From the NCBI GenBank assembly GCA_013316045.1, contig WSNJ01000002.1:743-64742 (forward strand): a stretch of 64,000 nt of DNA. The letters are read 5' to 3'. Within the stretch, counting starts at the first letter, position 1. The number at the start of each line of letters is the position of its first letter. Both the position numbers and the translations under genes were made by a program. This stretch comes from Clostridia bacterium (lineage in GTDB: Bacteria; Bacillota; Clostridia; Christensenellales; Pumilibacteraceae). The notes beneath the pieces are model-generated. The model was given only the letters and a program-made list of their open reading frames with translations, ran no database searches and was not told the origin of the DNA. Below, piece by piece: positions 1-52,635 of this stretch.

Positions 1-1
1 T

Positions 2-367
2 ATAATACATAATTTATCGCCAAAAGCAAAAACAATAGCCATAACATTAGAGGACACCACACATATAATTAAAGACTTTACACATTGGTGCATTTGGAAT
101 ATTGCGGCTGATAATAGAATTGAAAAAGGTATTCCAAAGGGAAAAATTGTGCCGTCGTTAGGATACGCCATACAAGGATTTGCTTACGGTTTGCACCGCT
201 ATGCGGGACCAAAACCGCCCAAAGGAAAAATGCATATCTATCGTTTTACTGTTTATTCGCTTGACTGCACAATCGAATTAAGTGCAAATAAAAGCAAAAA
301 AGCCTTTCTAAAAATAGCCCATAATCACATATTGCAAAAAGGCTCTATCTTGGGCGAATTTGAATAG
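2..367 (+). CDS. PEBP (YbhB/YbcL) family protein, 5' end cut by window edge
   Basis: The frame is open from nt 2. The translation ...FTHWCIWNIAADN...YAGPKPPKGKMHIYRFTVYSLD carries the bacterial phosphatidylethanolamine-binding-protein signature (GP.PP...H.Y.F.vY.L). Confidence 0.75.
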   Translation: MIHNLSPKAKTIAITLEDTTHIIKDFTHWCIWNIAADNRIEKGIPKGKIVPSLGYAIQGFAYGLHRYAGPKPPKGKMHIYRFTVYSLDCTIELSANKSKKAFLKIAHNHILQKGSILGEFE

Positions 368-375
368 GCGGGAAT

Positions 376-555
376 ATGGACGAAAACAAAACAATAAAAG
401 CGTCGTATTTTTACGCTTGCTGTCCGAATTGTAAAGCCGTTCTCATTCAAGCACAAAACGGTTTAGAGGGCTATATAAAATGTCCGAAATGCGAAAAATA
501 CATACACGTTACAATCAATAACGGAATTATAAGTACAAATATTAAGAACGCCTAA
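376..555 (+). CDS. small zinc-ribbon protein (59 aa)
   Basis: ATG at 376, TAA at 553-555, below the ORF-track cutoff. It has two Cys pairs (CCPNC ... CPKC) and is followed directly by an intrinsic terminator. Confidence 0.45.
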   Translation: MDENKTIKASYFYACCPNCKAVLIQAQNGLEGYIKCPKCEKYIHVTINNGIISTNIKNA

Positions 556-970: not shown

Positions 971-1375
971 ATGCAAACTATCAAATATACATTTGCGGAC
1001 GGCACTACAAATGAGGTCGAGGTTACGGAAGATATATATTTGATACACTTGGAATTATTACAACAAGAAAAGCGCAACCATTGGAAAGAAACAAGGCGGC
1101 ATACCTCGCTATACTACTTTACCGATTTGGGAATAGATTTTGAGGACAAGCGCACGGAAAGCCCGCTTGATTTATACATACGAAAAGAGAATATCGCAAG
1201 CGTAAGAAAAGCAATGTTATGCCTTACGGACAAGCGGCGCGAACTCATACATAAAGCATTTTTCGAGGAAAAGACATTCCGCGCTATCGCAAGAGAAAAA
1301 GGGTTATCGAAATCGGCAATATCGCAACAAATGAAAACGGTGTACAAGCATTTGCGGAAACATTTGGGGGCGTAG
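971..1375 (+). CDS. sigma-70 region-4-like HTH protein (134 aa)
   Basis: SD GGTGGAGG lies 7 nt before ATG 971. The C-terminus LTDKRRELIHKAFFEEKTFRAIAREKGLSKSAISQQMKTVYKHLRKHL resembles sigma-70 region 4.2 / LuxR-type HTH, as seen in small mobile-element regulators. Confidence 0.6.
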   Translation: MQTIKYTFADGTTNEVEVTEDIYLIHLELLQQEKRNHWKETRRHTSLYYFTDLGIDFEDKRTESPLDLYIRKENIASVRKAMLCLTDKRRELIHKAFFEEKTFRAIAREKGLSKSAISQQMKTVYKHLRKHLGA

Positions 1376-1378
1376 GCT

Positions 1379-1630
1379 ATGGGAAAAGAATTGTATCAGG
1401 TTGTTGCATATATCGCGTTACGCAATAAAGACGGCTCGCCTATGATAAACGTACCCTTGTATGTCAAGGTATCGGAAACAAACAAAAGCGGTATGACGGA
1501 AGCACAAGAAAGCGTTATGCACCGCATATCGGCACTTATGATAAAGCGCAACGAAAAGCAGTTAAGCGATTATTTTGCAAACGCAACGGCAACGTGCGCG
1601 GGCGGCTTGCCGCCCGCGCGTGGCGTATAG
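1379..1630 (+). CDS. hypothetical protein (83 aa)
   Basis: ATG lies 3 nt after the preceding stop. No recognisable motif. The last ~17 codons are formed by the hexamer repeats and the GC hairpin, and the stop codon TAG is the first three bases of the origin nonamer. Confidence 0.4.
   Translation: MGKELYQVVAYIALRNKDGSPMINVPLYVKVSETNKSGMTEAQESVMHRISALMIKRNEKQLSDYFANATATCAGGLPPARGV
1577..1594 (+). repeat. three tandem hexamers (iteron candidates)
   Basis: GCAAAC-GCAACG-GCAACG lies 26 nt upstream of the origin stem-loop. Confidence 0.5.
1596..1619 (+). other. perfect 10-bp GC hairpin abutting the origin stem-loop
   Basis: GCGCGGGCGG (1596-1605), loop CTTG, CCGCCCGCGC (1610-1619). Confidence 0.7.
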
Positions 1631-1644
1631 TATTACCACGCCAC
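1620..1644 (+). other. putative rolling-circle (nick-site) origin: stem-loop with TAGTATTAC
   Basis: GTGGCGT (1620-1626) pairs perfectly with ACGCCAC (1638-1644). The 11-nt loop is A-TAGTATTAC-C, with the nonamer at 1628-1636. It lies 48 nt upstream of the Rep ATG. Confidence 0.8.
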
Positions 1645-1692: not shown

Positions 1693-2730
1693 ATGGACGA
1701 AAACAAGGTTAAAATAGATTTGTCGGTTACAGACGAAACAAACGAAAAGCCGAAAAAGAACAAGCAGGCGCGCGATTGGTGCTTTACCGTAAATAACCCT
1801 GTACAAACGGAACAAGAATTTTTGGAGTATTTGAAAACGGTGTCCGATTTGCGGTATGCGGTATTCCAACGTGAACGCGCTCCCGAAACGGGAACGGAAC
1901 ATTATCAAGGGTATTTTGAGTTCACGCAACCCAAATGGTTTACTACCATTAAAAAATACCTATCTAAAAAGACGATAGGCGTTGACGCGCATATAGAACA
2001 ACGCCGTGCCAAACGAACGCAAGCCCGCCTATATTGTATGGACGAGGAAACGAGAATTAGTTCTACTTACTACGAATACGGCGAGTTCATAGAGGACGGC
2101 GAACGTACCGATTTAACCGATATAATGCGCGACATAGAAAACGACGTGAGTTTTTACGACCTTTCCAAAAAGCACGGCAACCGCTTTATACGGGTTATGA
2201 AATGGGCAAAAGAATACAGACAAGCCTATTTGGAAAATAAGTACAAACGGCAATTCCGTAAAATGCAGGTATATTATATTTACGGCTCTGCGGGTTGCGG
2301 AAAGACAAGTTACGTTTTCGGTAAGCACGGCTATGACGACGTTTACAGAACGACAAATTATGAGTTCGGCTGGATAGACGATTACAACGGCGAAAAGGTA
2401 TTGTTTCTTGACGAGTTTCGCAGTTCGTTCAAAATCTCTGAAATACTGGACTACTTGGACGGGCAACCTATACGAATACGAGGGCGACACTATAACCGCG
2501 TTGCTTGCTATGATACGGTTTACATTGTTTCAAATATACCGCTTACGGAGCAATACACCAAAATACAACAGTCCGAGCCTACAACGTGGGCGGCGTTCTT
2601 ACGGCGTATTACAGCGGTATATAATTTCGATATAAGCAAAGAAACGCCCGTAAGCAAGCATACGGGTAAATTGAAAGAAAAGGCTATAACTTTAATACCG
2701 CTTGACGATGACAGCGAAAGTCCGTTTTAG
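1693..2730 (+). CDS. rep: CRESS/circovirus-type replication initiator: HUH endonuclease + SF3 helicase
   Basis: Motif I CFTVNNP. Motif II HYQGY. Motif III region AHIEQRRAKRTQARLYCMDEE. Walker A GSAGCGKT. Walker B VLFLDEF. Motif C IVSN. Confidence 0.9.
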   Translation: MDENKVKIDLSVTDETNEKPKKNKQARDWCFTVNNPVQTEQEFLEYLKTVSDLRYAVFQRERAPETGTEHYQGYFEFTQPKWFTTIKKYLSKKTIGVDAHIEQRRAKRTQARLYCMDEETRISSTYYEYGEFIEDGERTDLTDIMRDIENDVSFYDLSKKHGNRFIRVMKWAKEYRQAYLENKYKRQFRKMQVYYIYGSAGCGKTSYVFGKHGYDDVYRTTNYEFGWIDDYNGEKVLFLDEFRSSFKISEILDYLDGQPIRIRGRHYNRVACYDTVYIVSNIPLTEQYTKIQQSEPTTWAAFLRRITAVYNFDISKETPVSKHTGKLKEKAITLIPLDDDSESPF

Positions 2731-2798: not shown

Positions 2799-2867
2799 CC
2801 TTACCTTTCAGCGATAAAACCCGCATACCCGTTTACGAATATGTAGTTCGGGTTCAATCTCTGTCGT

Positions 2868-2883
2868 TTCTGGTGCACCAGAA
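2868..2883. repeat. perfect 16-bp palindrome
   Basis: TTCTGGTGCACCAGAA. Confidence 0.6.
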
Positions 2884-2890
2884 GAAAGAA

Positions 2891-2927
2891 GTCGTAATTT
2901 GTCGAAAGACAAATGCGGCTTTTTTTA
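2891..2927 (+). terminator. terminator-like hairpin with no upstream CDS
   Basis: ATTTGTC-GAAA-GACAAAT core extended by GTCG/GCGGC pairs, then TTTTTTT. Its 3' arm plus T-tract form the right copy of the flanking direct repeat. Confidence 0.5.
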
Positions 2928-3020
2928 TTTCCTTGCTGTTCGGGTTTAACTTTATTAGCATAGTGAACAACGTCTAATTTTATAAATGAAAAATTTTTTA
3001 TGTAAAATACTTAAAAATGC

Positions 3021-3051
3021 TTGCTTATTACGTCGCGTAATGAATTATAAT
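3021..3051 (+). promoter_or_regulatory. MerR-type promoter with 19-bp spacer and operator dyad
   Basis: TTGCTT (3021-3026), a 19-nt spacer containing ATTACG-tcg-CGTAAT (3027-3041), and TATAAT (3046-3051). Confidence 0.7.
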
Positions 3052-3069
3052 ATTTGAGAAGGGGTATTT

Positions 3070-3858
3070 ATGGCAAGATATAAAGTAATTCCACAAGGAT
3101 TTATGACGGTTGGCGAAGTCGCAAAGAAAATGGGCGTAACCGTTCGGGCGTTGCAATATTATGACCGCGAAGGGCTATTCAGTCCGTCTTGTATAAGCGA
3201 AGGCGGACGGCGTTTGTATAGCGATAAAGATGTTGTTATGTTGCATCAGATACTTACCCTTAAATCGTTAGGGTTTTCATTTAATGAAATTAAAAACCGT
3301 ATGACTTCTATCGATACGCCTCGGAAAGCAATAGTTGCATTGACAGAACAGAGCAATTCCATACAAACACAAATAAATACGCTTAATCAATCTTTACAAT
3401 CAATCGAACTATTGAAAAATGAAATAGAACAAATGCAAGTAGTTGACTTTTCAAAGTATGCCGATATTATTATCAACTTGCAAATGGGAAATAAGTATTA
3501 CGGTTTAATTAAACATTTTGACGATAATATGCTTGATTACTGTCATAAGAAATTCGATAAAGGTACGGGTGTTGCGTTTATAAATAAGTTCAACTTGATT
3601 GTCGGTAAAATAGAAAAATGCGTTGAAAACGGCATAGCACCCGAAAGCGAACAAGGACAACTTATTGCAAAAGAATTTTGGCAACTTATAACAGAGTTTA
3701 CGGGCGGCGATGTGAGTATGTTATCACAACTGATGAATTTCGGAAACGCACAAGCGGATAACGATATGCAAAATATACTGAATGCTTTTATCGAGCCTGC
3801 GCTGAACGTTTATTTCGGTAATTCGGGTATAAACCCTTTCGAGGCAAAAAATGAATAA
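3070..3858 (+). CDS. MerR family transcriptional regulator
   Basis: The N-terminus MTVGEVAKKMGVTVRALQYYDREGLFSP is the MerR winged-HTH signature. A coiled-coil and an effector domain follow. Confidence 0.85.
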   Translation: MARYKVIPQGFMTVGEVAKKMGVTVRALQYYDREGLFSPSCISEGGRRLYSDKDVVMLHQILTLKSLGFSFNEIKNRMTSIDTPRKAIVALTEQSNSIQTQINTLNQSLQSIELLKNEIEQMQVVDFSKYADIIINLQMGNKYYGLIKHFDDNMLDYCHKKFDKGTGVAFINKFNLIVGKIEKCVENGIAPESEQGQLIAKEFWQLITEFTGGDVSMLSQLMNFGNAQADNDMQNILNAFIEPALNVYFGNSGINPFEAKNE

Positions 3859-4663
3859 TATAATCGAAGTCAATGAGTTAAAAAAGAGTTACGGCACTAA
3901 TACCGTATTGAAAGGAATAAATTTAACCGTACGCAAAGGAGAAATCTTTGCCTTGCTCGGCGTAAACGGTGCGGGCAAAACTACGGCTTTGGAATGTATC
4001 GAGGGCTTACGCGCATACGACGGCGGAAATATAACCGTAAACGGGAAAATCGGTATTCAATTACAATCGTCCGCCTTGCAAGCCTATATTAAACCTATGG
4101 AAGCGGTGAAACTGTTTGCGAATTGGCATAAAACCGTTCCCGATAAAGAGACGTTAAATTCTTTCGGAATACCCGAATTGTCCAAAAAGAAATATGCCGA
4201 TTTATCTACGGGGCAAAAACGCCGCTTACACCTTGCGCTTGCCCTTATAGGCAACCCCGATATTATTTTTCTTGACGAACCTACGGCGGGACTTGACGTA
4301 GAGGGGCGCGTATCGCTACACAAACAAATACGAGCATTAAAAACGCAAGGCAAAACAATTATTCTTGCAAGCCACGATATGGCGGAAGTTGAAGAATTAT
4401 GCGACAGAGTAGCGGTTTTACGTAACGGATATATTGCTTTTATCGGAACGGTTGACGAATTTACCGCTATGGGCGGCAAAAGGCACATTATACGCGTTAA
4501 AACAGCCTACGGGCAAAACGAATACGAAACGGAAAATATAACGGAAACTCTTTTTGCGCTATTATCGGAATGCAAGCAAAAAGGAATATCTATTTCCGAA
4601 ATTCAGACCGACAGAGTATCGCTTGAACAAAATTTTATAAACATTGTGAGGGGTGCGGAATAA
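3851..4663 (+). CDS. ABC transporter ATP-binding protein
   Basis: Walker A GVNGAGKTT, signature LSTGQKRRL, Walker B IIFLDEPTAGLD. It overlaps merR by 8 nt. Confidence 0.9.
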   Translation: MNNIIEVNELKKSYGTNTVLKGINLTVRKGEIFALLGVNGAGKTTALECIEGLRAYDGGNITVNGKIGIQLQSSALQAYIKPMEAVKLFANWHKTVPDKETLNSFGIPELSKKKYADLSTGQKRRLHLALALIGNPDIIFLDEPTAGLDVEGRVSLHKQIRALKTQGKTIILASHDMAEVEELCDRVAVLRNGYIAFIGTVDEFTAMGGKRHIIRVKTAYGQNEYETENITETLFALLSECKQKGISISEIQTDRVSLEQNFINIVRGAE

Positions 4664-5373
4664 TGAAGGCATTATTGTACGGAATCGTTTTGCAATTCAA
4701 GTTTGACATACGCAGTAAAGGTATGCTTATAACTTGCTATCTCGTGCCGCTTGTATTTTTCCTGTTTATGGGCGGAATTTTCACGTCTATTGACCCAAAC
4801 GCTACAAAAACTATTATCTCGTCAATGACGGTATTCACAATTATAATGAGCGCATTATTCGGCGTACCGCCCGCTGTTGCGGAAATCTACGGTACAGACG
4901 TTAAAAAGGTCTATAAAGCAAACGGCGCACCTATATGGTTTGGCGTTATATCGCAGTTTATTTCGTCTTTTATACATACGCTTATATGCTGTCTTATAGT
5001 TTTTGCACTTTCGCCATTAATTTTCAAAGCGGAATTGCCGTCTGATTTGATATGGTATTTTTTATCGCTTATAGCGTTGCTTGCGATAACTCTTGCTATC
5101 GGTTGTATTTTCGGACTTTTGATTAAGCAGCAGGCAAAATTGACAATGGTTGCAATGGCAATTTTCTTGCCGTCCACTATGCTGTCGGGTATTATGTTTT
5201 CCGCAGATATGTTGCCGCAGTTTATGCAATATATTGCCTATGCTTTCCCCGCCGCAATAGCATTTAAGGCAATGACGGGTTTTCGGGTTTGGCATTTACC
5301 CGTATTGTTCTGTATATTTATTTTACTTTGCGGCGTTATTGTTCTATTGTTAAAATTTAAGATTAAACGATAA
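4663..5373 (+). CDS. ABC-2 type transporter permease
   Basis: About 6 hydrophobic helices. ATGA start/stop overlap with the ATPase gene. Confidence 0.75.
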   Translation: MKALLYGIVLQFKFDIRSKGMLITCYLVPLVFFLFMGGIFTSIDPNATKTIISSMTVFTIIMSALFGVPPAVAEIYGTDVKKVYKANGAPIWFGVISQFISSFIHTLICCLIVFALSPLIFKAELPSDLIWYFLSLIALLAITLAIGCIFGLLIKQQAKLTMVAMAIFLPSTMLSGIMFSADMLPQFMQYIAYAFPAAIAFKAMTGFRVWHLPVLFCIFILLCGVIVLLLKFKIKR

Positions 5374-5404
5374 TTGACTTATGGTCGAAAGTATATCCGA
5401 GCAT

Positions 5405-38280: not shown

Positions 38281-41200
38281 TTAATCGTCGAACTCGTCAA
38301 TGTAAGAGTCTGCCGTTTTGTCGGCTTTTACTTCTTTCTTAACCGGTTCGGTCGGCTTTTCCTGCTTTGCGGGCTTTTCTTTTTCCGTTACCGTTTCGGT
38401 TTTTTCCGCGCTTTCCGAACTATCGACGTTTTCGGGCTTTTCTGCGGGTTCTTCGTTTTCGGCAGTTTCCGAATTTTCAGCCGTTTCGGCAGTTTCGGCG
38501 TGCCTTGCGGGAGCTTCTTCCGCTACGGGTTCTTCGGTTTCCGTTACGTCTGCTTCGGGTTCGGTTGTCGTTACCGTAGTTTTTTCCGAAGCGTCGTCGT
38601 CGAACTCGCCGTAAGTGCTGTCGCTTACGCTGTCGGCTTTTACTTTTTCGCCCTTTTCGGAGTTTTCGTTGTGGATATTGTTGAGAGTGTTTTTGCGGTC
38701 GTATCCGCTCGTCGTTTCGACTTTAACGCGTTTCTTCGCTCTGTTGTCCGTTATACGGCGAACTACTATTCCGACTATCGCTATAAGGAGCGCTATCGAG
38801 AACAGTATCGACGGAATGAGCCACCAGTTGAACGAAGACGCGGGGCTTGCTGAATCGTCGCCGTCGTCGGTGTCGTCGGTAGCTGCCGTCAAATCGGCTT
38901 TAACCGCATAGGTTACGTTCTTTTGAACTTCGCCTACGTTGAACGACTTAACCGCGGAATCTTCCATTTTCTCGACCATATCGTCGTATTGAACGTTATC
39001 TATTTCGGTGAACGTAATATCGTTTACGTAAACTCTGCCCGAGCAATATTGATTCGAGTATTCGCTGCCGCCGAGCGTTATCGCAACCGAAACGGTTCTT
39101 TCTTCGCTGCCGCCGAGAATATAGAACTCGAACGTTCTGAACGTTTCGTTGTTAACCGTCTGGTCGGTAACGGTGCGCGTGCTCTGAATGTTGCCGAACT
39201 TGAATTCCGTTCCCGTAAGCTCTACGCCCGCTCCGATTGCCGTATCGGCGTTGCCGTTGCCCAAGTCTACTTTAAGCGTTACCGACAATTTATAGTACGT
39301 GCTTGCCGAAACGGTAAATCCGTTGTCGAGCGTAAGGCGCGAAGCGGTAGGGGATACGTTGTGCAAGTACAGCACGCCGTTGTTCGCTGCGTTTTCGTCG
39401 TTTTTGAAGTGCGGCGGAATTTCGTAAGTGCCTTCGGGGATATTCTTCGAATCGAATATTCCGTAAACAACGCCGTCGGTGCTTGCTTTTCCGCCTGCCG
39501 TAAGCGTCCAGTTGTACGGGAACTTAACGACGCCGTTGTCGTAGTAGTCGTAAGCGGTAAAGTCTTCGGCGTTGAACGTGTAAGCCGCGCTCGTGATTTT
39601 TCCGCCGACGCGCATTGCGTTTTCGTATTCGGTCTTGAACGTTGCATAGCTTTCGTCTTCGCCGATAGCCGCAAACGATACCTGCGAGAAGAATACGGTG
39701 CCGCTCGAAAGTTTTGAATTGTTATTCTTATCTCTGTCGAGCATTCCGAGCCACAATTCCACCGAAACCGTCTTATCCGCAACTCCGCCTTCGATATAGA
39801 AGGTAAACGTTTCAAAACCGTGCGTGGACGTTATGTTTTCGATTGTCGAGATGACTTTCGATTCGTTCTTTAATACGAGATTTGCGCCGTAGCCGTCTTT
39901 AATATCGGCTTTAAGCGTTACGGTAAGTCTGTTTGCCGTGCCTGCGGTAAGCGTTATATCGGACGAACGGTAACCGAGCGCTGTGGGGTTCTTGCTCGAA
40001 ATAACGAGCAGATTGCCTTTTTCGCCGCGGCGCGGATTGATTATTCCGTTCTCCGTAAGGTCGTTGTACATTTTGCCCGAGAAATCTTTTTCGGTCGGAA
40101 CTATTCCGCTTACCACGCTGTCGTAATCGCAATACGAAGAGTTGGAAGAGTAACCGCTCCAACCTGCGTCGGACGCGTTAACCTTTGTCCAGGAAGCGGG
40201 GGCAAGGGGATACTTGTATTCGTCGTAGTCGCCCGCAAGGAAGAACGCGCCGTTCGTTACGCCGCTGTCGTTGTTTGCGAACGTTCCGTCTATCGAAACG
40301 ATTGTGCCGTTTGCGCTGTTGTCGGCAAACTCGGAACTCGTTATGTTGTCGAAACGGATATTGTTGAACATTACCGTTCCGCGAGCTTTATCGGAAAAAC
40401 TTCCGCCGAGTCTTAACGCGAGCGTAAAGGTGTATTCTTCAATCGACGAACCCTGAATGTAGAACGCGTATTCTTTCCAACCGTGTCTGCCTGCAAAATT
40501 TTCGTCGCCCGTTACGTTTTCGATAACGAACTCTCTGTATTCGTCGTCTTTGCCGCCCGATACGAGCTTGTTGGTTTTAAGAACTATATCGGCTCCCGAC
40601 GTGTCGTTCACGCCGTCCGTTTTTACCCAAATACTGAGTCTGCGGTACGAGAACATCGGAACGGTGAGCGAGTTTTTGGACGTAAAGCCCGTGTATGCGT
40701 CGCCGTAGTTTTTAACGTCGTTCACGGTATCCTTATACGACGATATAATCAATATGTCTTTAAGATATTCGTTTTCAATAGCGTAGCTTCCGCCGTTTGC
40801 GGGGAACGTTCCTACCGAAGTTTCGGGAGCGGCGTCAAGTCCGTATTCCGATTTGTTGAAAGCGTCGCCCGAAACAAAACCGTTCGTTACGTTTTCCGCC
40901 GAGCCTATGTTATACTCCCAATTATCCGAGCCGAAAGCAAAGCCGAGCTTCTGTTCGTCGCTGCCGAAAGCGGTGTCGAGCGAAAGGTCGACGATTTTAT
41001 AGTAGTTTAATCTTTCGTCGGAGCTGCCGATTTTTTCCACAAAGTCGATATAATCGTTATATTCGGTTGCGCTGAGCTCTCTGCCTTCGACCATATCGAA
41101 GAAAGCGTAACCGGTTGCGAAATTCGTAATATTGTCTTCCGCGTATTCGTCGCCTATTCCGAGCGATACGGAGAGCGTTTTGCTTCCGAGCGGGGAAGTG

Positions 41201-41880
41201 GCAATATAGAAAGTGTACTTTCTCCAACCGTAGAGATTTTTGCCGGGTTCGGTCGGCGCGTTGGTATCGTTGTCGTAAGGGGGAGCGAGCCTGCTTACGG
41301 TGTTTATTTTATTGAACGCGTAGTCGCCGCCCAAACCGTTAAGCCTTATGGTTGCGCCGGAGTTGTCGCGGAAGTTACCCGTTCTTACCCAAGCGGAAAC
41401 TGCGTAGTAGCTGTTTGCGTTGAGCGTAACGTCGGACGAAGTATATTTAACCGCCGTGTTCGTTGAGGTGGTAGTGTTTATCATAAGGAACTTCGAGCCG
41501 CCTTCGAGACCATCCGCACCTTTGCCGAACGGCGTTTGGGGCAGAGCGTCGCTGAACTCGTCGTATTGCGAGAGCTTGGACGCGTCTTTGTTATCGGTCG
41601 TGTTGAACGTAGCGGGGTTCAGAACGCCCGATACGGTCGAGCCTTCGTTTACGCCGTCTGCCGTGCTTTTCGTCCAGCCCGTAGGCGTTTCGGGAAAACT
41701 GCCCGACGAATTTTCGAACTCGTTGTTTTCAAAGTTCAGCGTACTCAGCTCCGCTTCGGCTTTTGCCGCAAAACGAACTCTCGGAGTAAAAATAAGAGTA
41801 ATTGCCGAGAACACGAGCGCGAGTACGAGTAGCGACAAAACCGATTTTAGCAGGATTTTCTTTTTGAAAAGTTTGTCCAT
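38281..41880 (-). CDS. 1199-aa surface protein: signal/anchor, 4-5 CBM4_9-like beta-sandwich repeats, C-terminal TM, acidic cytoplasmic tail
   Basis: N-terminal hydrophobic segment. Repeated modules ending ...GW(K/R).Y.FYI...(S/T)(V/F)(S/T)(L/V).L.LG. TM segment WWLIPSILFSIALLIAIVGIVV (nt 38752-38835). 156-aa E/T/K-rich tail. Confidence 0.7.
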   Translation of the reverse strand: MDKLFKKKILLKSVLSLLVLALVFSAITLIFTPRVRFAAKAEAELSTLNFENNEFENSSGSFPETPTGWTKSTADGVNEGSTVSGVLNPATFNTTDNKDASKLSQYDEFSDALPQTPFGKGADGLEGGSKFLMINTTTSTNTAVKYTSSDVTLNANSYYAVSAWVRTGNFRDNSGATIRLNGLGGDYAFNKINTVSRLAPPYDNDTNAPTEPGKNLYGWRKYTFYIATSPLGSKTLSVSLGIGDEYAEDNITNFATGYAFFDMVEGRELSATEYNDYIDFVEKIGSSDERLNYYKIVDLSLDTAFGSDEQKLGFAFGSDNWEYNIGSAENVTNGFVSGDAFNKSEYGLDAAPETSVGTFPANGGSYAIENEYLKDILIISSYKDTVNDVKNYGDAYTGFTSKNSLTVPMFSYRRLSIWVKTDGVNDTSGADIVLKTNKLVSGGKDDEYREFVIENVTGDENFAGRHGWKEYAFYIQGSSIEEYTFTLALRLGGSFSDKARGTVMFNNIRFDNITSSEFADNSANGTIVSIDGTFANNDSGVTNGAFFLAGDYDEYKYPLAPASWTKVNASDAGWSGYSSNSSYCDYDSVVSGIVPTEKDFSGKMYNDLTENGIINPRRGEKGNLLVISSKNPTALGYRSSDITLTAGTANRLTVTLKADIKDGYGANLVLKNESKVISTIENITSTHGFETFTFYIEGGVADKTVSVELWLGMLDRDKNNNSKLSSGTVFFSQVSFAAIGEDESYATFKTEYENAMRVGGKITSAAYTFNAEDFTAYDYYDNGVVKFPYNWTLTAGGKASTDGVVYGIFDSKNIPEGTYEIPPHFKNDENAANNGVLYLHNVSPTASRLTLDNGFTVSASTYYKLSVTLKVDLGNGNADTAIGAGVELTGTEFKFGNIQSTRTVTDQTVNNETFRTFEFYILGGSEERTVSVAITLGGSEYSNQYCSGRVYVNDITFTEIDNVQYDDMVEKMEDSAVKSFNVGEVQKNVTYAVKADLTAATDDTDDGDDSASPASSFNWWLIPSILFSIALLIAIVGIVVRRITDNRAKKRVKVETTSGYDRKNTLNNIHNENSEKGEKVKADSVSDSTYGEFDDDASEKTTVTTTEPEADVTETEEPVAEEAPARHAETAETAENSETAENEEPAEKPENVDSSESAEKTETVTEKEKPAKQEKPTEPVKKEVKADKTADSYIDEFDD

Positions 41881-49300: not shown

Positions 49301-49918
49301 ATGACGGAAAGCACAACAACGCAAAGCAACAAGGTCTACTTATGCGGAACGGTCGAATCGGACCCCGTATACAGCCACGAGCTGTACGGCGAAGGTTTTT
49401 ACGAGTTTCTGCTTAAAGTTCCGCGCTTATCGCAGCAAAACGACATTATTCCCGTAACGGTTTCGGAAAGACTGCTCGGCGGCGCGAACTTAACTGTCGG
49501 AACGAAAATAGCTCTTAACGGACAGTTCCGAAGCTATAACAAAATGGTGGACGAAAAGAGCAAACTTATGCTTACGGTGTTCGTAAGAGATTTTTGCGAA
49601 CCGCTCGAAGAAAACCCGAATACGGTGGAACTCGCCGGATATATATGTAAGCCGCCTATTTACAGAACTACGCCTTTCAACCGCGAAATATGCGATTTGC
49701 TTATCGCCGTGAACAGAGCGTACAATAAGTCCGATTACATTCCGTGTATTGCCTGGGGCAGAAACGCGCGCTTTGTAAAGAACGCGGAAGTGGGACAGAA
49801 GCTCGTAATTCAGGGCAGAATACAGAGCCGCGAGTACGTGAAAAAACTGTCCGAAACCGAGAGTGAAACGCGCGTCGCTTACGAACTTTCCGTAAATAAA
49901 ATCAATCTGGAAGATTAA
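49301..49918 (+). CDS. tandem OB-fold SSB/PriB-like protein
   Basis: Two ~100-aa halves with the same pattern (L.G.V...P.Y...........F.L.V.R.S...D.IP....) and no acidic C-terminal SSB tail. Confidence 0.45.
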   Translation: MTESTTTQSNKVYLCGTVESDPVYSHELYGEGFYEFLLKVPRLSQQNDIIPVTVSERLLGGANLTVGTKIALNGQFRSYNKMVDEKSKLMLTVFVRDFCEPLEENPNTVELAGYICKPPIYRTTPFNREICDLLIAVNRAYNKSDYIPCIAWGRNARFVKNAEVGQKLVIQGRIQSREYVKKLSETESETRVAYELSVNKINLED

Positions 49919-52635
49919 AATTCCGAATCTTTATCGAATTTGTTTTCGTCGACCTTGTTTATCTTGTTGCGCTTTATAACGTAAGCTCTTGCGCAAAGGA
50001 ATATTATAAGCGCGACGGTTATGATTATAAGTACCACGGCGACTATTTTAACTATGTTAACGCCTTGGTACTTTATATTTGCCGTTTCTACGAACGCCGT
50101 AACCGTGCCGTTGGGCGTGTAAAATGCGATTTGCGTAAACGGTTCGGACGAATCGAACGCGCCGATAACTTCGACTTTCGTGCCCACGGACAATGGTTCG
50201 AATCTGTTATCGGCGACTATTTCGCCGTTTTCGTTCTTTTTGTAAACGATAGCGCCCGCGGTCGGAACGTTTTTGTCCTTTGCGATTATTTCGGCGTTGA
50301 CTTGCGGACGGACAGACATATCGGGATTGCCCGCGAGCACAGAAACAGTGCTTGCAACCACAAAGCCCTCGTACTCGACGTTATCCTTTTTCAGTAACAC
50401 TCTGTACCATCTGTGATTGTTCAAAAGCGTTTCGGAGTCGGGGAAGTTGTCCGTGTAGCCGTAAATTATGCCGCCGGGAGTTTGCTCGTAAACGAAGTCG
50501 AGAATTTTGAAAGAAGTTCCCTTGTCCGCGCTTTCGTCAATCTTCGGAGCCTGGCGCGACGGGTATTTATATACGGGAACGCTGCTTATCCACGCCGAAC
50601 ACTCGGTTTCGTGTTCGTCGGTATAGGGGAGCGGGTCGGATAAAAATTCGTTGTGAACGTAGCCCGTTATAATCGGGTCTTTATCGTAGTTCGACGAACC
50701 TAAAATAACGTTGTCCGCAAATACGAGCGAGAACGCGCCGTCCGAGTTATATTCGGGGACTATAACTTTATAGCCGTAAGGGAGCGTTCTGAGAAGCGTA
50801 ACTTCCGAGCTTTGCGCGTATACTTCCGCGCCCGCGGGGTTAATAACGGTGCGGATTAAAGGTGCGGACAGGTTTACGGGAATCGGGTTTGCGTCGACTG
50901 CGGGCGGAGTTGTAACGTCGCCTATATCGACGCCGAAATCGGAACACGGAACGGTTCTTATGCGGTGTCCGACCGATTCGGTTACTATTATATCGCGGTA
51001 GCCGAGCGCGGCGTTCGATACGTTGGAAACGGTTATTCCCGAAAGCGTAAGACAGTTCGTTATAACGTGCTGTTCGCCCAATTCGTAAGTGAGATTTTCC
51101 ACGCGGTTGTAGCGCGATATTCTGTCGCCGACTTGCAGAACGTAAACGGAGTTGTCTGCGTCTACGGCTATATCTTTTACGCTCGGCAAAGAAATTCCCG
51201 TGTTTTCTGCTTGCGTTCCGTTTATGCGTTTTACCGTTTTTTTGCCGTCGGCTCCGTCTACCGTTATATACACGTACGCGCTGTTCGGAGATACGTCCAA
51301 AAGGCTTACGTTTTCCGCCGCGCCTTCAAGCGGTGCAAAGTCGTTTTCGCCCGCGGGCTTTGTGAATATCGCGCCGCTTTTGGAAAGCAAGTACAGCGTG
51401 CCTTTCAAGTCGCATTTTATATCGGCGACGGCGACTTTTTCGGTATAAGTTTCGCCGTTTGCGTTCTTAACCGAAATTTTTTCGTTTTCGGGCGAAGTGA
51501 GCCGCTCGAAAGACGCGTCGAATACGGCTATTCTGTTTTCGGAATACGCCGCGTAAATATTGCCCGTGTGGTCGGACGCCACGGCTATCGGGCGGAATAG
51601 ATTATCGCTTAAAGCCGAATATTTTTCGCCGTCGTGAATTACGATGCGGTCGTTGTTTCTGTCGGCTATGTAAGTTCTGTTTTTGCGCGTTATAACGTCG
51701 GACGGCGAACTGAAAAAGCCGAGTTCGTCGGAAGCGGACGCGAGCACGCAGGTTGTTTCCGACAGCGATTTTCCGTAGCGCGTTACCGCTTTGTTTGCGT
51801 CGAGAACGAATATATTTCCGCCGCTTGCCGTCATCGCCAAAGCGTCGGTTTCGGTCTGAACGTTCGCGCCGACTATAAGTTCGTCGATTCCGCGTTCGTA
51901 TAGCGAAATTCCCTTATTGTTGAGTACGGCAAGATAGTTTTCGCTCGCTTGCATAGCAATTATTTCGGATAAATTCTCGACCGCCGTTTCGGTTTCGTTT
52001 TGCGCGGTAAAATACGAAATATCGTCGCGCCGAGCAGAGCCGCGCTTGTGCGAAACGTAAACCGTGCCGTTAAGAACGGCAAAAGTCTTTATTGCATAGG
52101 GGGAAGTAAAAGTTTTAACGTCGGTTTCCGTGCGGCTGTATCTGACTATTTCCGTTTCGCTAATCTGCGCATAGATATGCGTTTCGTCTACAAATACTCC
52201 GCGGCAGTCGTTGCCGAAATCCGCAATCGGAGTTCTGCCGTCGTTGTTGTAAAGATAAACTTCTCCGTTTTCAACCGTTACCGCGGTTTCGCCGCGAACG
52301 GAGAAATAAGACGGCGCGACCTGTATTTGCGCGCCCGAAAACAGCGGATAATCGGAAACGGCAAAACTTAAAAGCGAGAAACGCTTTATCTCGGTTCCGT
52401 CGAGCACGTACAGAAAATCGCCGTCCGCTCCGAGCGCAACGGGGTCGTCGAAAAGGTGGTAAACGGTTTTCGTCTGTTCTTCCTTGGGCGGCGCGAACGC
52501 TTGCGACTCTGCGTCGGCGCGGGCTTGCGTCTGCCCGTTTTGCGATAAGAGCGGAGTAAAACAAAGCGCAAGCGCAATGAGCGCAATTACGCAAAATACC
52601 GTAAATTTTCTTCTTCCGTGCGATAACGATTTCAT
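49915..52635 (-). CDS. 906-aa surface protein: signal peptide, NHL/beta-propeller-like repeats, SH3b-like region, C-terminal TM anchor
   Basis: Signal peptide ...ALALCFTPLLSQ. About 10 blade-like repeats (e.g. RTYIADRNNDRIVIHD, GNIYAAYSENRIAVFD). C-terminal IVAVVLIIITVALIIFLCA plus a short charged tail. Confidence 0.65.
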   Translation of the reverse strand: MKSLSHGRRKFTVFCVIALIALALCFTPLLSQNGQTQARADAESQAFAPPKEEQTKTVYHLFDDPVALGADGDFLYVLDGTEIKRFSLLSFAVSDYPLFSGAQIQVAPSYFSVRGETAVTVENGEVYLYNNDGRTPIADFGNDCRGVFVDETHIYAQISETEIVRYSRTETDVKTFTSPYAIKTFAVLNGTVYVSHKRGSARRDDISYFTAQNETETAVENLSEIIAMQASENYLAVLNNKGISLYERGIDELIVGANVQTETDALAMTASGGNIFVLDANKAVTRYGKSLSETTCVLASASDELGFFSSPSDVITRKNRTYIADRNNDRIVIHDGEKYSALSDNLFRPIAVASDHTGNIYAAYSENRIAVFDASFERLTSPENEKISVKNANGETYTEKVAVADIKCDLKGTLYLLSKSGAIFTKPAGENDFAPLEGAAENVSLLDVSPNSAYVYITVDGADGKKTVKRINGTQAENTGISLPSVKDIAVDADNSVYVLQVGDRISRYNRVENLTYELGEQHVITNCLTLSGITVSNVSNAALGYRDIIVTESVGHRIRTVPCSDFGVDIGDVTTPPAVDANPIPVNLSAPLIRTVINPAGAEVYAQSSEVTLLRTLPYGYKVIVPEYNSDGAFSLVFADNVILGSSNYDKDPIITGYVHNEFLSDPLPYTDEHETECSAWISSVPVYKYPSRQAPKIDESADKGTSFKILDFVYEQTPGGIIYGYTDNFPDSETLLNNHRWYRVLLKKDNVEYEGFVVASTVSVLAGNPDMSVRPQVNAEIIAKDKNVPTAGAIVYKKNENGEIVADNRFEPLSVGTKVEVIGAFDSSEPFTQIAFYTPNGTVTAFVETANIKYQGVNIVKIVAVVLIIITVALIIFLCARAYVIKRNKINKVDENKFDKDSEF

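Follow-up and report, generated by a model that had tools for sequence, protein, structure and literature searches.

The window analysed here is a stretch of 64,000 nucleotides (nt) from a Clostridia bacterium (GenBank assembly GCA_013316045.1, contig WSNJ01000002.1, positions 743 to 64,742 of the forward strand), and all coordinates below count from its first letter. At 1693-2730 (+) it carries an intact open reading frame (ORF) of 345 amino acids (aa) with an ATG start, for which a preliminary description proposed a circovirus-type replication initiator (Rep), that is, an HUH nuclease fused to a superfamily 3 (SF3) helicase, encoded in a bacterial chromosome. The ORF belongs to a replication module together with a helix-turn-helix (HTH) gene, a small ORF and an origin hairpin, and this module lies within an integrative element of 6,128 bp, of which the window has only the right 2.9 kb (1-2880). 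The features of the module are the following.

971-1375 (+): HTH protein of the sigma-70 region-4/KorA-like type, 134 aa, the first gene of the replication module
1379-1630 (+): ORF83, a conserved small protein, between the HTH gene and the origin
1600-1615 (+): GC-rich hairpin GGGCGG-CTTG-CCGCCC, directly 5' of the origin hairpin, kept in the short and long forms of the element described below
1620-1644 (+): origin stem-loop, with a 7-bp stem GTGGCGT/ACGCCAC and an 11-nt loop ATAGTATTACC
1693-2730 (+): rep, with an HUH (HUQ-type) nuclease at about aa 25-131, a helical oligomerisation region at about aa 140-184 and an SF3 ATPase at about aa 190-311
1780-1800 (+): Rep motif I CFTVNNP, aa 30-36
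1900-1914 (+): Rep motif II HYQGY, aa 70-74
2032-2034 (+): candidate catalytic tyrosine Y114 of Rep
2284-2307 (+): Rep Walker A GSAGCGKT, aa 198-205
2398-2418 (+): Rep Walker B VLFLDEF
2524-2535 (+): Rep motif C IVSN, aa 278-281

The match of the ORF to the Reps of circular Rep-encoding single-stranded (CRESS) DNA viruses is far beyond chance. Both expected Pfam families scored above their gathering cutoffs, Viral_Rep PF02407 with 62 bits against a cutoff of 26 (E=6.4e-17, aa 27-118) and RNA_helicase PF00910 marginally, with 21.8 bits against 21.5 (E=2.8e-4). A phmmer search of the PDB aligned aa 26-310 with the full-length Rep of porcine circovirus 2 (PCV2; 7lar, E=1.3e-19) and the nuclease domain with the M-Rep nuclease of faba bean necrotic yellows virus (FBNYV; E=3e-11). 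An AlphaFold2 (AF2) model, for which an alignment of 49 homologs served as input, reached a mean predicted local distance difference test (pLDDT) score of 87, and its best Foldseek matches in the PDB were CRESS-virus Reps only, namely the full-length redondovirus Rep (E=7e-15), the FBNYV nuclease (template modelling (TM) score 0.91, root-mean-square deviation 1.5 Å) and the PCV2 ATPase (TM score 0.79-0.86). The domain assignment of the preliminary description was thus borne out by profile, by alignment and by the fold comparison it had proposed, which led to CRESS-virus Reps with PCV2 among them, and its motif coordinates are all right when counted from nt 1693.

Across the 49 homologs, H70 and Q72 of motif II are invariant, as are G198, G203, K204, E241 and N281 of the helicase, and Y114 is nearly invariant. 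In the phmmer alignment Y114 falls on the catalytic tyrosine of the PCV2 motif YCSK, and judging from this correspondence it is the catalytic tyrosine of the window Rep. The departure from the family pattern that had been pointed out in motif III is present in the ORF, which reads YCMD, with D117 at the position where the family has lysine, so the pattern YxxK is absent. YCM[DE] is found in relatives of at least 55% Rep identity, and YCxK is kept in more distant ones.

The nonanucleotide of circoviruses and nanoviruses is TAGTATTAC. The only exact copy in the window stands at 1628-1636, within the loop of a hairpin that ends 49 nt 5' of the rep start codon, and the TAG stop of ORF83 forms its first three bases. 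When clades from 35% to 100% Rep identity were compared, the loop was nearly invariant, with a single copy reading TAGTATTAT, and the stems varied yet remained complementary: GTGGCGT/ACGCCAC, GGGTGGAC/GTCCACCC and TGGCGTAAA/TTTACGCCA, and at 35-41% Rep identity GTTGTTAGGG/CCCTAACAAC, CCAAGG/CCTTGG and GGTAGCCTAGAG/CTCTAGGCTACC. GTAAC repeats 3' of the hairpin are also conserved. The canonical nonanucleotide origin beside rep, as the preliminary description had it, is therefore confirmed as a lone exact copy in a hairpin with covarying stems. The analogy with circo-, nano- and geminiviruses predicts a nick that separates T1634 from A1635 (TAGTATT/AC).

The other two genes of the module are those of the HTH protein and ORF83. 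The HTH protein matches Pfam Sigma70_r4 (E=7e-8) and KORA (E=9e-6) and, over its full length, phrog_11138 (E=5e-22), and is presumed to be a regulator. ORF83 has 130 homologs of 72-85 aa and no family match in Pfam, PHROG or NCBIfam; its AF2 model was of low confidence (pLDDT 61), too poor for a fold search. Against diverged copies, the ratio of nonsynonymous to synonymous substitution rates (dN/dS) was 0.06-0.07 for Rep, 0.08-0.23 for the HTH gene and 0.11-0.20 for ORF83, and these values of 0.06-0.23 point to purifying selection on all three.

The extent of the element was established from near-identical copies. Found through the zinc-ribbon protein, the full 6,128-bp unit is about 95% identical across 8 different chromosomal contexts, and its order is a large serine recombinase gene (-), TetR, a metallo-beta-lactamase (MBL)-fold gene, a phosphatidylethanolamine-binding protein (PEBP) gene, the zinc ribbon, the sigma-r4 HTH gene, ORF83, the origin and Rep. 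The recombinase has in the copies the domains Resolvase PF00239, Recombinase PF07508 and Zn_ribbon_recom PF13408. The remaining features of the element in the window, and of its right border, are these.

1-367 (+): 3' part of a PEBP-family cargo gene (Pfam PBP PF01161, E=2.3e-9), open frame from nt 2
376-555 (+): zinc-ribbon ORF of the element, 59 aa, with two CxxC pairs
2765-2799 (no strand): perfect 14-bp hairpin, a bidirectional terminator for rep (+) and the recombinase gene (-) of the circular form
2801-2878 (-): C-terminal tail of the recombinase, translated as VHQKRQRLNPNYIFVNGYAGFIAER* (last 25 codons and stop)
2871-2880: core TGGTGCACCA of the right attachment site (attR), a perfect 10-bp palindrome, the right end of the element
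2881-2930 (+): AT-rich hairpin followed by a T-run, in the host flank, outside the element

The window begins within the PEBP gene, which in full encodes 161 aa and has the same position in the copies L011-L018. The exact zinc-ribbon protein was found in 414 index blocks, and in each of the 8 places listed the PEBP and HTH genes of the same element flank it. Similarity to other copies breaks off at 2876/2877, and downstream in the window follow chromosomal genes (TrkA, TrkH, an aminotransferase, NadD-RsfS). With these host genes and with near-identical copies on contigs of metagenome-assembled genomes (MAGs) of up to 289 kb, the chromosomal setting that had been assigned to the Rep stands.

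Several observations on the cargo and on variant copies were made along the way. The MBL-fold gene (about 8765-9490 in L011-L018) has a weak match to Pfam Anti-Pycsar Apyc1 PF23023 besides Lactamase_B, which makes a function in anti-defence or signalling conceivable for the TetR, MBL and PEBP cargo. Elsewhere the cargo is swapped: in L005-L009 (6832-9210) TetR, DUF6796, a zinc ribbon and a 150-aa ORF replace TetR, MBL and PEBP, and these copies keep the recombinase (93-96% nucleotide identity) and the Rep module (84-90%). In L012 (1952-7037) the recombinase gene is split by a 5-kb insert with a serine recombinase (DUF4368) and a MobV relaxase, a nested mobile element. L011 (6349-10771) holds a derivative without Rep, in which the part from recombinase to HTH gene is 96% identical and unrelated genes replace ORF83, the origin and Rep. 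An exact 15-nt direct repeat TATGGACGAAAACAA at 375-389 and 1692-1706 spans the start codons of the zinc-ribbon ORF and rep, and both proteins start with MDENK; by our estimate about 0.01 such matches per 5 kb are expected by chance, and both copies of the repeat are also in the L018 element copy. It may reflect a common region for translation initiation or be the scar of a recombination event. To the right of attR, a MerR regulator (3070-3858) and an ABC-2 transporter pair (3851-5373) have 37-41% GC, similar to the element, and the DNA from 5.5 kb onward has 48-50%; the region 2881-5400 may be a second island acquired at the same tRNA hotspot. Still farther right, two long minus-strand ORFs at 38281-41880 (1199 aa) and 49915-52635 (906 aa) have no Pfam match at E<=1e-5, and several plus-strand ORFs overlap the former.

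The ends of the element are those of a site-specific recombinase substrate. The core TGGTGCACC(A) is found at both ends of the unit, and when the ends are joined, the attachment site of the circle (attP) reads ..TCGTTTC TGGTGCACCA AAGACGA.., an imperfect inverted repeat around the perfect 10-bp palindrome. This attP lies within the last ~27 codons of the recombinase ORF, which reads through it, so in the integrated state the tail of the recombinase is split from the rest of its gene by the whole element; the tail read at 2801-2878 also ends the ORF rebuilt across the circular joint of the L013 copy. The traits of elements moved by large serine recombinases, namely a recombinase gene beside attP, a short core common to attP and the chromosomal site attB, and imperfect inverted-repeat arms, are present in related copies, and inside the window they are limited to attR and the recombinase tail.

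At about 60 junctions the element adjoins the ..GCACCA end of a tRNA gene, the targets being tRNA-Leu (five anticodons) and tRNA-Lys-CTT, and in diverged variants with the core TGGTGG tRNA-Ala or tRNA-Tyr. The tRNA stands either at attR on the minus strand or at the left attachment site (attL) on the plus strand, so the element occurs in both orientations, as the palindromic core predicts. More than 20 distinct insertion sites were counted. ARAGORN found no tRNA in the whole window. Copies in which attR TGGTGCACCA is followed by DNA other than tRNA and for which attL was recovered (L015, L016, L019, L024, L027, L032) have a plus-strand tRNA-Leu at attL, and because of these a plus-strand tRNA, probably tRNA-Leu, is predicted at the attL of the window copy, about 3.25 kb left of the window start. 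By the same analogy, the hairpin and T-run at 2881-2930 would be the displaced terminator of that tRNA gene. A second locus (tRNA-Leu-CAG/ComEC), distinct from that of the window copy with its MerR flank, has a copy of 99.4% DNA identity whose Rep protein is identical, which indicates recent movement. Membership of a tailed prophage was considered as well, since L005, L012 and L017 have terminase and portal genes on the right side of Rep; it was rejected, as six host tRNAs in an array stand between the element and those genes, with the element ending at the first of the six, and the flanks of other copies are unrelated.

Kazlauskas et al. (2019; PMC6668415) distinguished nine groups of bacterial CRESS-like Reps, pCRESS1-9, and reported that 97.5% of the Reps of pCRESS1-6 and 8 lie in site-specifically integrated chromosomal elements, mostly at tRNA genes, which mostly have tyrosine recombinases and no capsid genes. 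An FtsK-like ATPase and a single-stranded DNA-binding protein (SSB) gene mark the family of pCRESS1-3/5/8 elements, and bacterial elements with circovirus-type Reps were proposed as the ancestors of the eukaryotic CRESS-DNA viruses (PMC6668415). Elements of this kind are thus already known to be frequent in gut Firmicutes. Given the proportion of integrated Reps, a chromosomal CRESS-type Rep in a Firmicute is to be expected, and the remark of the preliminary description that a chromosomal copy is still unusual does not hold. For comparison with these groups, reference Reps were taken from the supplementary alignments of PMC6668415 (8 sequences, trimmed), and the scores and identities to the window Rep were as follows.

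MolHR2-E1 (JRFF01000028), pCRESS2: 192 bits, 40% identity
SCH60086 (SCH60086.1), pCRESS2: 172 bits, 35% identity
p4M, pCRESS3: 124 bits, 29% identity
PCV2 Rep, Circoviridae: 89 bits, 25% identity
WP_026524352, pCRESS1: 54 bits, 24% identity

By group, the members of pCRESS2, integrated plasmids of Firmicutes and Tenericutes, scored 192, 172, 158 and 142 bits, those of pCRESS3, the p4M-like group of Actinobacteria, 124 and 75, and that of pCRESS1 54. A neighbour-joining tree, rough in that it used the 8 trimmed references without bootstrap or maximum likelihood, placed the window Rep beside the MolHR2/SCH60086 branch. On these scores, the Rep is closest to pCRESS2 and not to any virus. Placement in a described plasmid-Rep clade, which according to the preliminary description would make the gene ordinary, is essentially what these comparisons indicate, the best match being the pCRESS2 Rep of MolHR2-E1 (192 bits, 40% identity). 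Motif II of the HUQ type has been described as a signature of pCRESS3 and the viruses (PMC6668415), and an assignment to pCRESS3 on this ground was tried and dropped: the identity to p4M is lower than that to pCRESS2, and HUQ occurs also in the pCRESS2 Reps SCH60086 (HIQ) and MolHR2 (HHQ).

With pCRESS2 the window element shares the HUH and SF3 domains of the Rep, the HUQ-type motif II, the motif C asparagine, a Glu-Glu in Walker B that is seen in relatives, the site-specific integration at tRNA genes with a direct repeat, and the lack of capsid genes. It differs in having a large serine recombinase instead of the tyrosine recombinase of pCRESS2, an att core that is a 10-bp palindrome at the CCA end used in both orientations, no FtsK-like ATPase or SSB among its 8 genes, and YCMD in motif III; its length of 6.1 kb is below that of every listed pCRESS2 element (3.3-28 kb) except one, and its hosts are Christensenellales MAGs, which are absent from the host lists and tree labels consulted in PMC6668415. 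The main text of that paper makes no mention of a nonanucleotide, a stem-loop or serine recombinases, and in the literature searched TAGTATTAC was not found paired with pCRESS or inovirus. The Circoviridae and Nanoviridae (PCV2 7lar, FBNYV 6h8o) are alike in domain order, fold, HUQ motif II, the single catalytic tyrosine and the TAGTATTAC stem-loop just upstream of rep, whereas the identity to them is 25-35%, the lysine of motif III is aspartate in the window Rep, and the window element is hosted by bacteria, lacks a capsid gene and is integrated by a recombinase. Members of the Rep family are numerous and centred on the gut, with 474 protein clusters at E<=1e-3 and 437 matches in species-representative genomes, and the closest Reps come almost all from gut MAGs of Christensenellaceae, Christensenella, Borkfalkiaceae and Clostridia, together with the isolate Anaerocaecibacter muris CLA-AA-M11. 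The window Rep is a new, abundant branch near pCRESS2 in an element of differing architecture.

Taking these results together, we consider it likely that the Rep ORF encodes the protein that initiates replication of an integrative, plasmid-like element of 6.1 kb, which excises and undergoes Rep-driven rolling-circle replication. The serine recombinase would recombine the palindromic attP core with the 3' end (..GCACCA) of a gene for tRNA-Leu or tRNA-Lys, leaving the tRNA intact and inserting the element in either orientation. Excision would re-form the circle and thereby restore the native C-terminus of the recombinase. On the circle, Rep would bind the origin and nick the loop at TAGTATT/AC through Y114, and its SF3 helicase would drive rolling-circle replication by the host polymerases, and in this way the excised circle would persist or be amplified. 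Of these steps, nicking, excision and replication are inferred, as is what happens to the single strand, which might persist as a plasmid, be exported by way of a helper or pass to other cells by conjugation. The proposal rests on the domains, fold and motifs of the Rep, the conservation of the origin with its covarying stems, purifying selection, the structure of the att sites and the many insertion sites. The low dN/dS, the covarying stems around an invariant loop, the more than 20 insertion sites and the identical Rep at two loci make the element look active.

Several points weigh against this proposal. The attP joint of the excised circle would read TCTCTGTCGTTTCTGGTGCACCAAAGACGATAAAGG, and an exact-pattern scan of the JGI metagenome contigs and IMG/VR found no such circular joint; a looser pattern in the same collections returned 9 attL junctions (8 distinct host sites) and 0 attP. 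In IMG/VR, none of the relatives that align over more than half of the Rep exceeds 34% identity, and short partial matches go up to 45%. The missing circle and the missing IMG/VR relatives are a weak negative, because nearly all copies come from gut MAGs in ENA/NCBI. Motif III lacks the usual lysine (YCMD), and the catalytic competence of the Rep is assumed from its conservation. The recombinase and the left 3.2 kb, which lie outside the window, are deduced from copies 94-99% identical. No single-strand origin for lagging-strand synthesis was identified in the element, and it encodes no transfer function though it has spread between many species.

The relatives of the element fall into two forms. 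In the short form, to which 100% of the classifiable copies with a Rep of at least 88% identity belong, ORF83 stands directly upstream of the origin and Rep; in the long form, found in 100% of the classifiable copies with a Rep of 78-86% identity, about 6 kb are added between ORF83 and the origin. The HTH and ORF83 genes of the long form are homologous to those of the short form, its origin is the same, and the copies that were checked (e.g. L049, L060) have the same type of junction at a tRNA end. Its extra genes encode a 321-aa protein, a membrane-anchored protein of 175 aa, a 724-aa coiled-coil protein with Flg_new repeats, proteins of 121, 140 and 106 aa, and a 302-aa P-loop ATPase. The 121-aa protein (L049, 6867-7232) is 75-96% identical across the long forms without a family match, and its position suggests that it might bind DNA. 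The ATPase matches inovirus Zot/pI proteins in hhalign with a probability of 97.4% (E=1e-11), a link made by profile-profile comparison only, as the Pfam Zot model has no direct match to it. Both forms occur in one MAG, MGBC135946 (L022/L038, both copies classified), and probably also in MGBC105190 (L056/L067) and MTG238_bin.18 (L036/L082), where L067 and L082 are truncated and were typed by Rep identity alone. The window element is probably a reduced derivative of the long form, and in the simplest reading it is a deletion derivative of single origin, in which the deletion spared the regulator, ORF83, the origin, Rep and the recombinase, and which gained cargo.

Farther out, Reps at 41% and 43% identity adjoin ATPases with weak Pfam Zot matches, one of these prophage-like regions (L109) having a tyrosine integrase, and a Rep relative at 57% has a similar layout with an SSB gene and no Zot match. 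The Rep of GenBank inoviruses (bajarodino viruses) is 31% identical, and inovirus-like genomes with CRESS-type Reps (ctbe30/ctbc27) were published by Tisza et al. (2020; PMC7000223). The inovirus-like genomes with such Reps are alike in the Rep family (31-57% identity), in the TAGTATTAC hairpin upstream of rep, seen in the inovirus-like prophage L085, and in the Zot-like ATPase of the sibling long elements. The window element, in contrast, has no Zot-like ATPase and no coat-like or adsorption-protein-like genes, and carries the TetR, MBL and PEBP cargo instead; neither the window nor any copy of the short form has the inovirus hallmarks, a pI/Zot ATPase together with coat proteins that are small and hydrophobic.

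One may ask whether the window element is a helper-dependent satellite, whose Rep-made circles of single-stranded DNA would be packaged or exported by the machinery of a co-resident sibling with the Zot-like ATPase. RS1 relates to CTXphi as satellite to helper, and this is the comparison we offer for the window element. The clean split by Rep identity between forms that share the HTH gene, ORF83, origin and tRNA-end integration favours a satellite, as do the hhalign match of the ATPase, the Zot-adjacent and 57% relatives, the inovirus Reps and the co-residence in the same MAGs. However, a crude hydropathy scan of the long form revealed neither a small hydrophobic ORF of the coat-like type nor a membrane segment in its ATPase, and for this reason the long form is not established as a filamentous phage; the comparators differ, as the inovirus L099 has small ORFs with a membrane segment and L111 has those and one in its Zot-like ATPase. 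Pfam Zot misses the ATPase and IMG/VR lacks close relatives, the short form has its own recombinase and cargo like an ordinary integrative plasmid, and co-residence may merely reflect a shared host range. We therefore regard the satellite as unlikely; if true, it would give Gram-positive bacteria a parallel to RS1/CTXphi, with a replication module of the circovirus type at its base.

Transfer by conjugation would fit an integrative mobilizable element (IME), in which the Rep is mainly a non-canonical relaxase, the hairpin serves as oriT and Rep passes together with the single strand through the mating pore of a co-resident conjugative element. PF02407 proteins of streptococcal IMEs (e.g. IME_SiniSF1_ebfC) have been proposed as relaxases (Guedon et al. 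2017; PMC5704250), the Rep_trans/MobT proteins of Tn916 and ICEBs1 are relaxase and replication initiator in one, and the window element occurs in dozens of species-level genomes yet has no transfer genes of its own. It resembles the streptococcal IMEs as a small integrated element with an integrase, a Viral_Rep protein and no pore genes, but those encode a TcpA/FtsK-like coupling protein and tyrosine integrases and the 6.1-kb element has neither, while the fused SF3 helicase and the circovirus-type origin point to replication. The literature searched contained no experiment in which a CRESS-type Rep served as relaxase. The Reps of the streptococcal IMEs are probably pCRESS1, whose members are about 24% identical to the window Rep, and StrIni-E1 of S. 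iniae, in a YbaB-like gene, looks like the same element as IME_SiniSF1_ebfC. Among the serine-recombinase mobilizable elements of Clostridia, the Tn4451 family is alike in having one large serine recombinase at one end and very short identical att cores; site-specific serine-recombinase IMEs insert within genes and disrupt them (PMC5704250), whereas the window element spares the tRNA and has its attP inside the recombinase ORF. A role of the Rep mainly in mobilization is in our view quite improbable.

Two further alternatives were weighed against the integrative plasmid-like element. In the first, the gene would be a dead leftover of a virus or plasmid, decaying or domesticated in the chromosome and no longer active in movement or replication. 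This would agree with the failure to detect a circular form in the JGI metagenome contigs and IMG/VR and with the lack of the motif III lysine, but the strong purifying selection on all three module genes, an ORF intact in dozens of genomes, the conserved origin, the more than 20 distinct insertion sites and the identical Rep at two loci speak against it, so that it is strongly disfavoured and has very little chance of being right. An autonomous 2-kb rolling-circle transposon (HTH gene, ORF83 and Rep, 904-2877; cut-and-paste or copy-out like IS91/ISCR, Helitrons or Replitrons), suggested by the sharply bounded block 904-2877 that is 88% shared with loci of different flanks on both sides, was ruled out by the boundary mapping of the 6.1-kb unit and its att cores and is hardly credible, since 904 is a mere module junction with other cargo between the same recombinase and Rep module (L005 versus L013), the true ends are the two TGGTGCACC cores 6.1 kb apart, next to a serine recombinase, and the nonanucleotide is internal and not at an element end.

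The recombinase, with its palindromic core and its use of the CCA ends of several tRNAs in either orientation, may be of interest to those who work with integrases. The lineage is abundant in gut Christensenellales and has kept the exact nonanucleotide of circoviruses and nanoviruses in a covarying hairpin. To our knowledge, no bacterial element with a circovirus-type Rep has been studied experimentally. A cultured carrier of the long form, Anaerocaecibacter muris CLA-AA-M11, and the existence of two forms offer a tractable system for asking whether TAGTATTAC is truly the site at which a CRESS-type Rep of bacteria fires, and by what route a plasmid-like state and a virus-like one change into each other.

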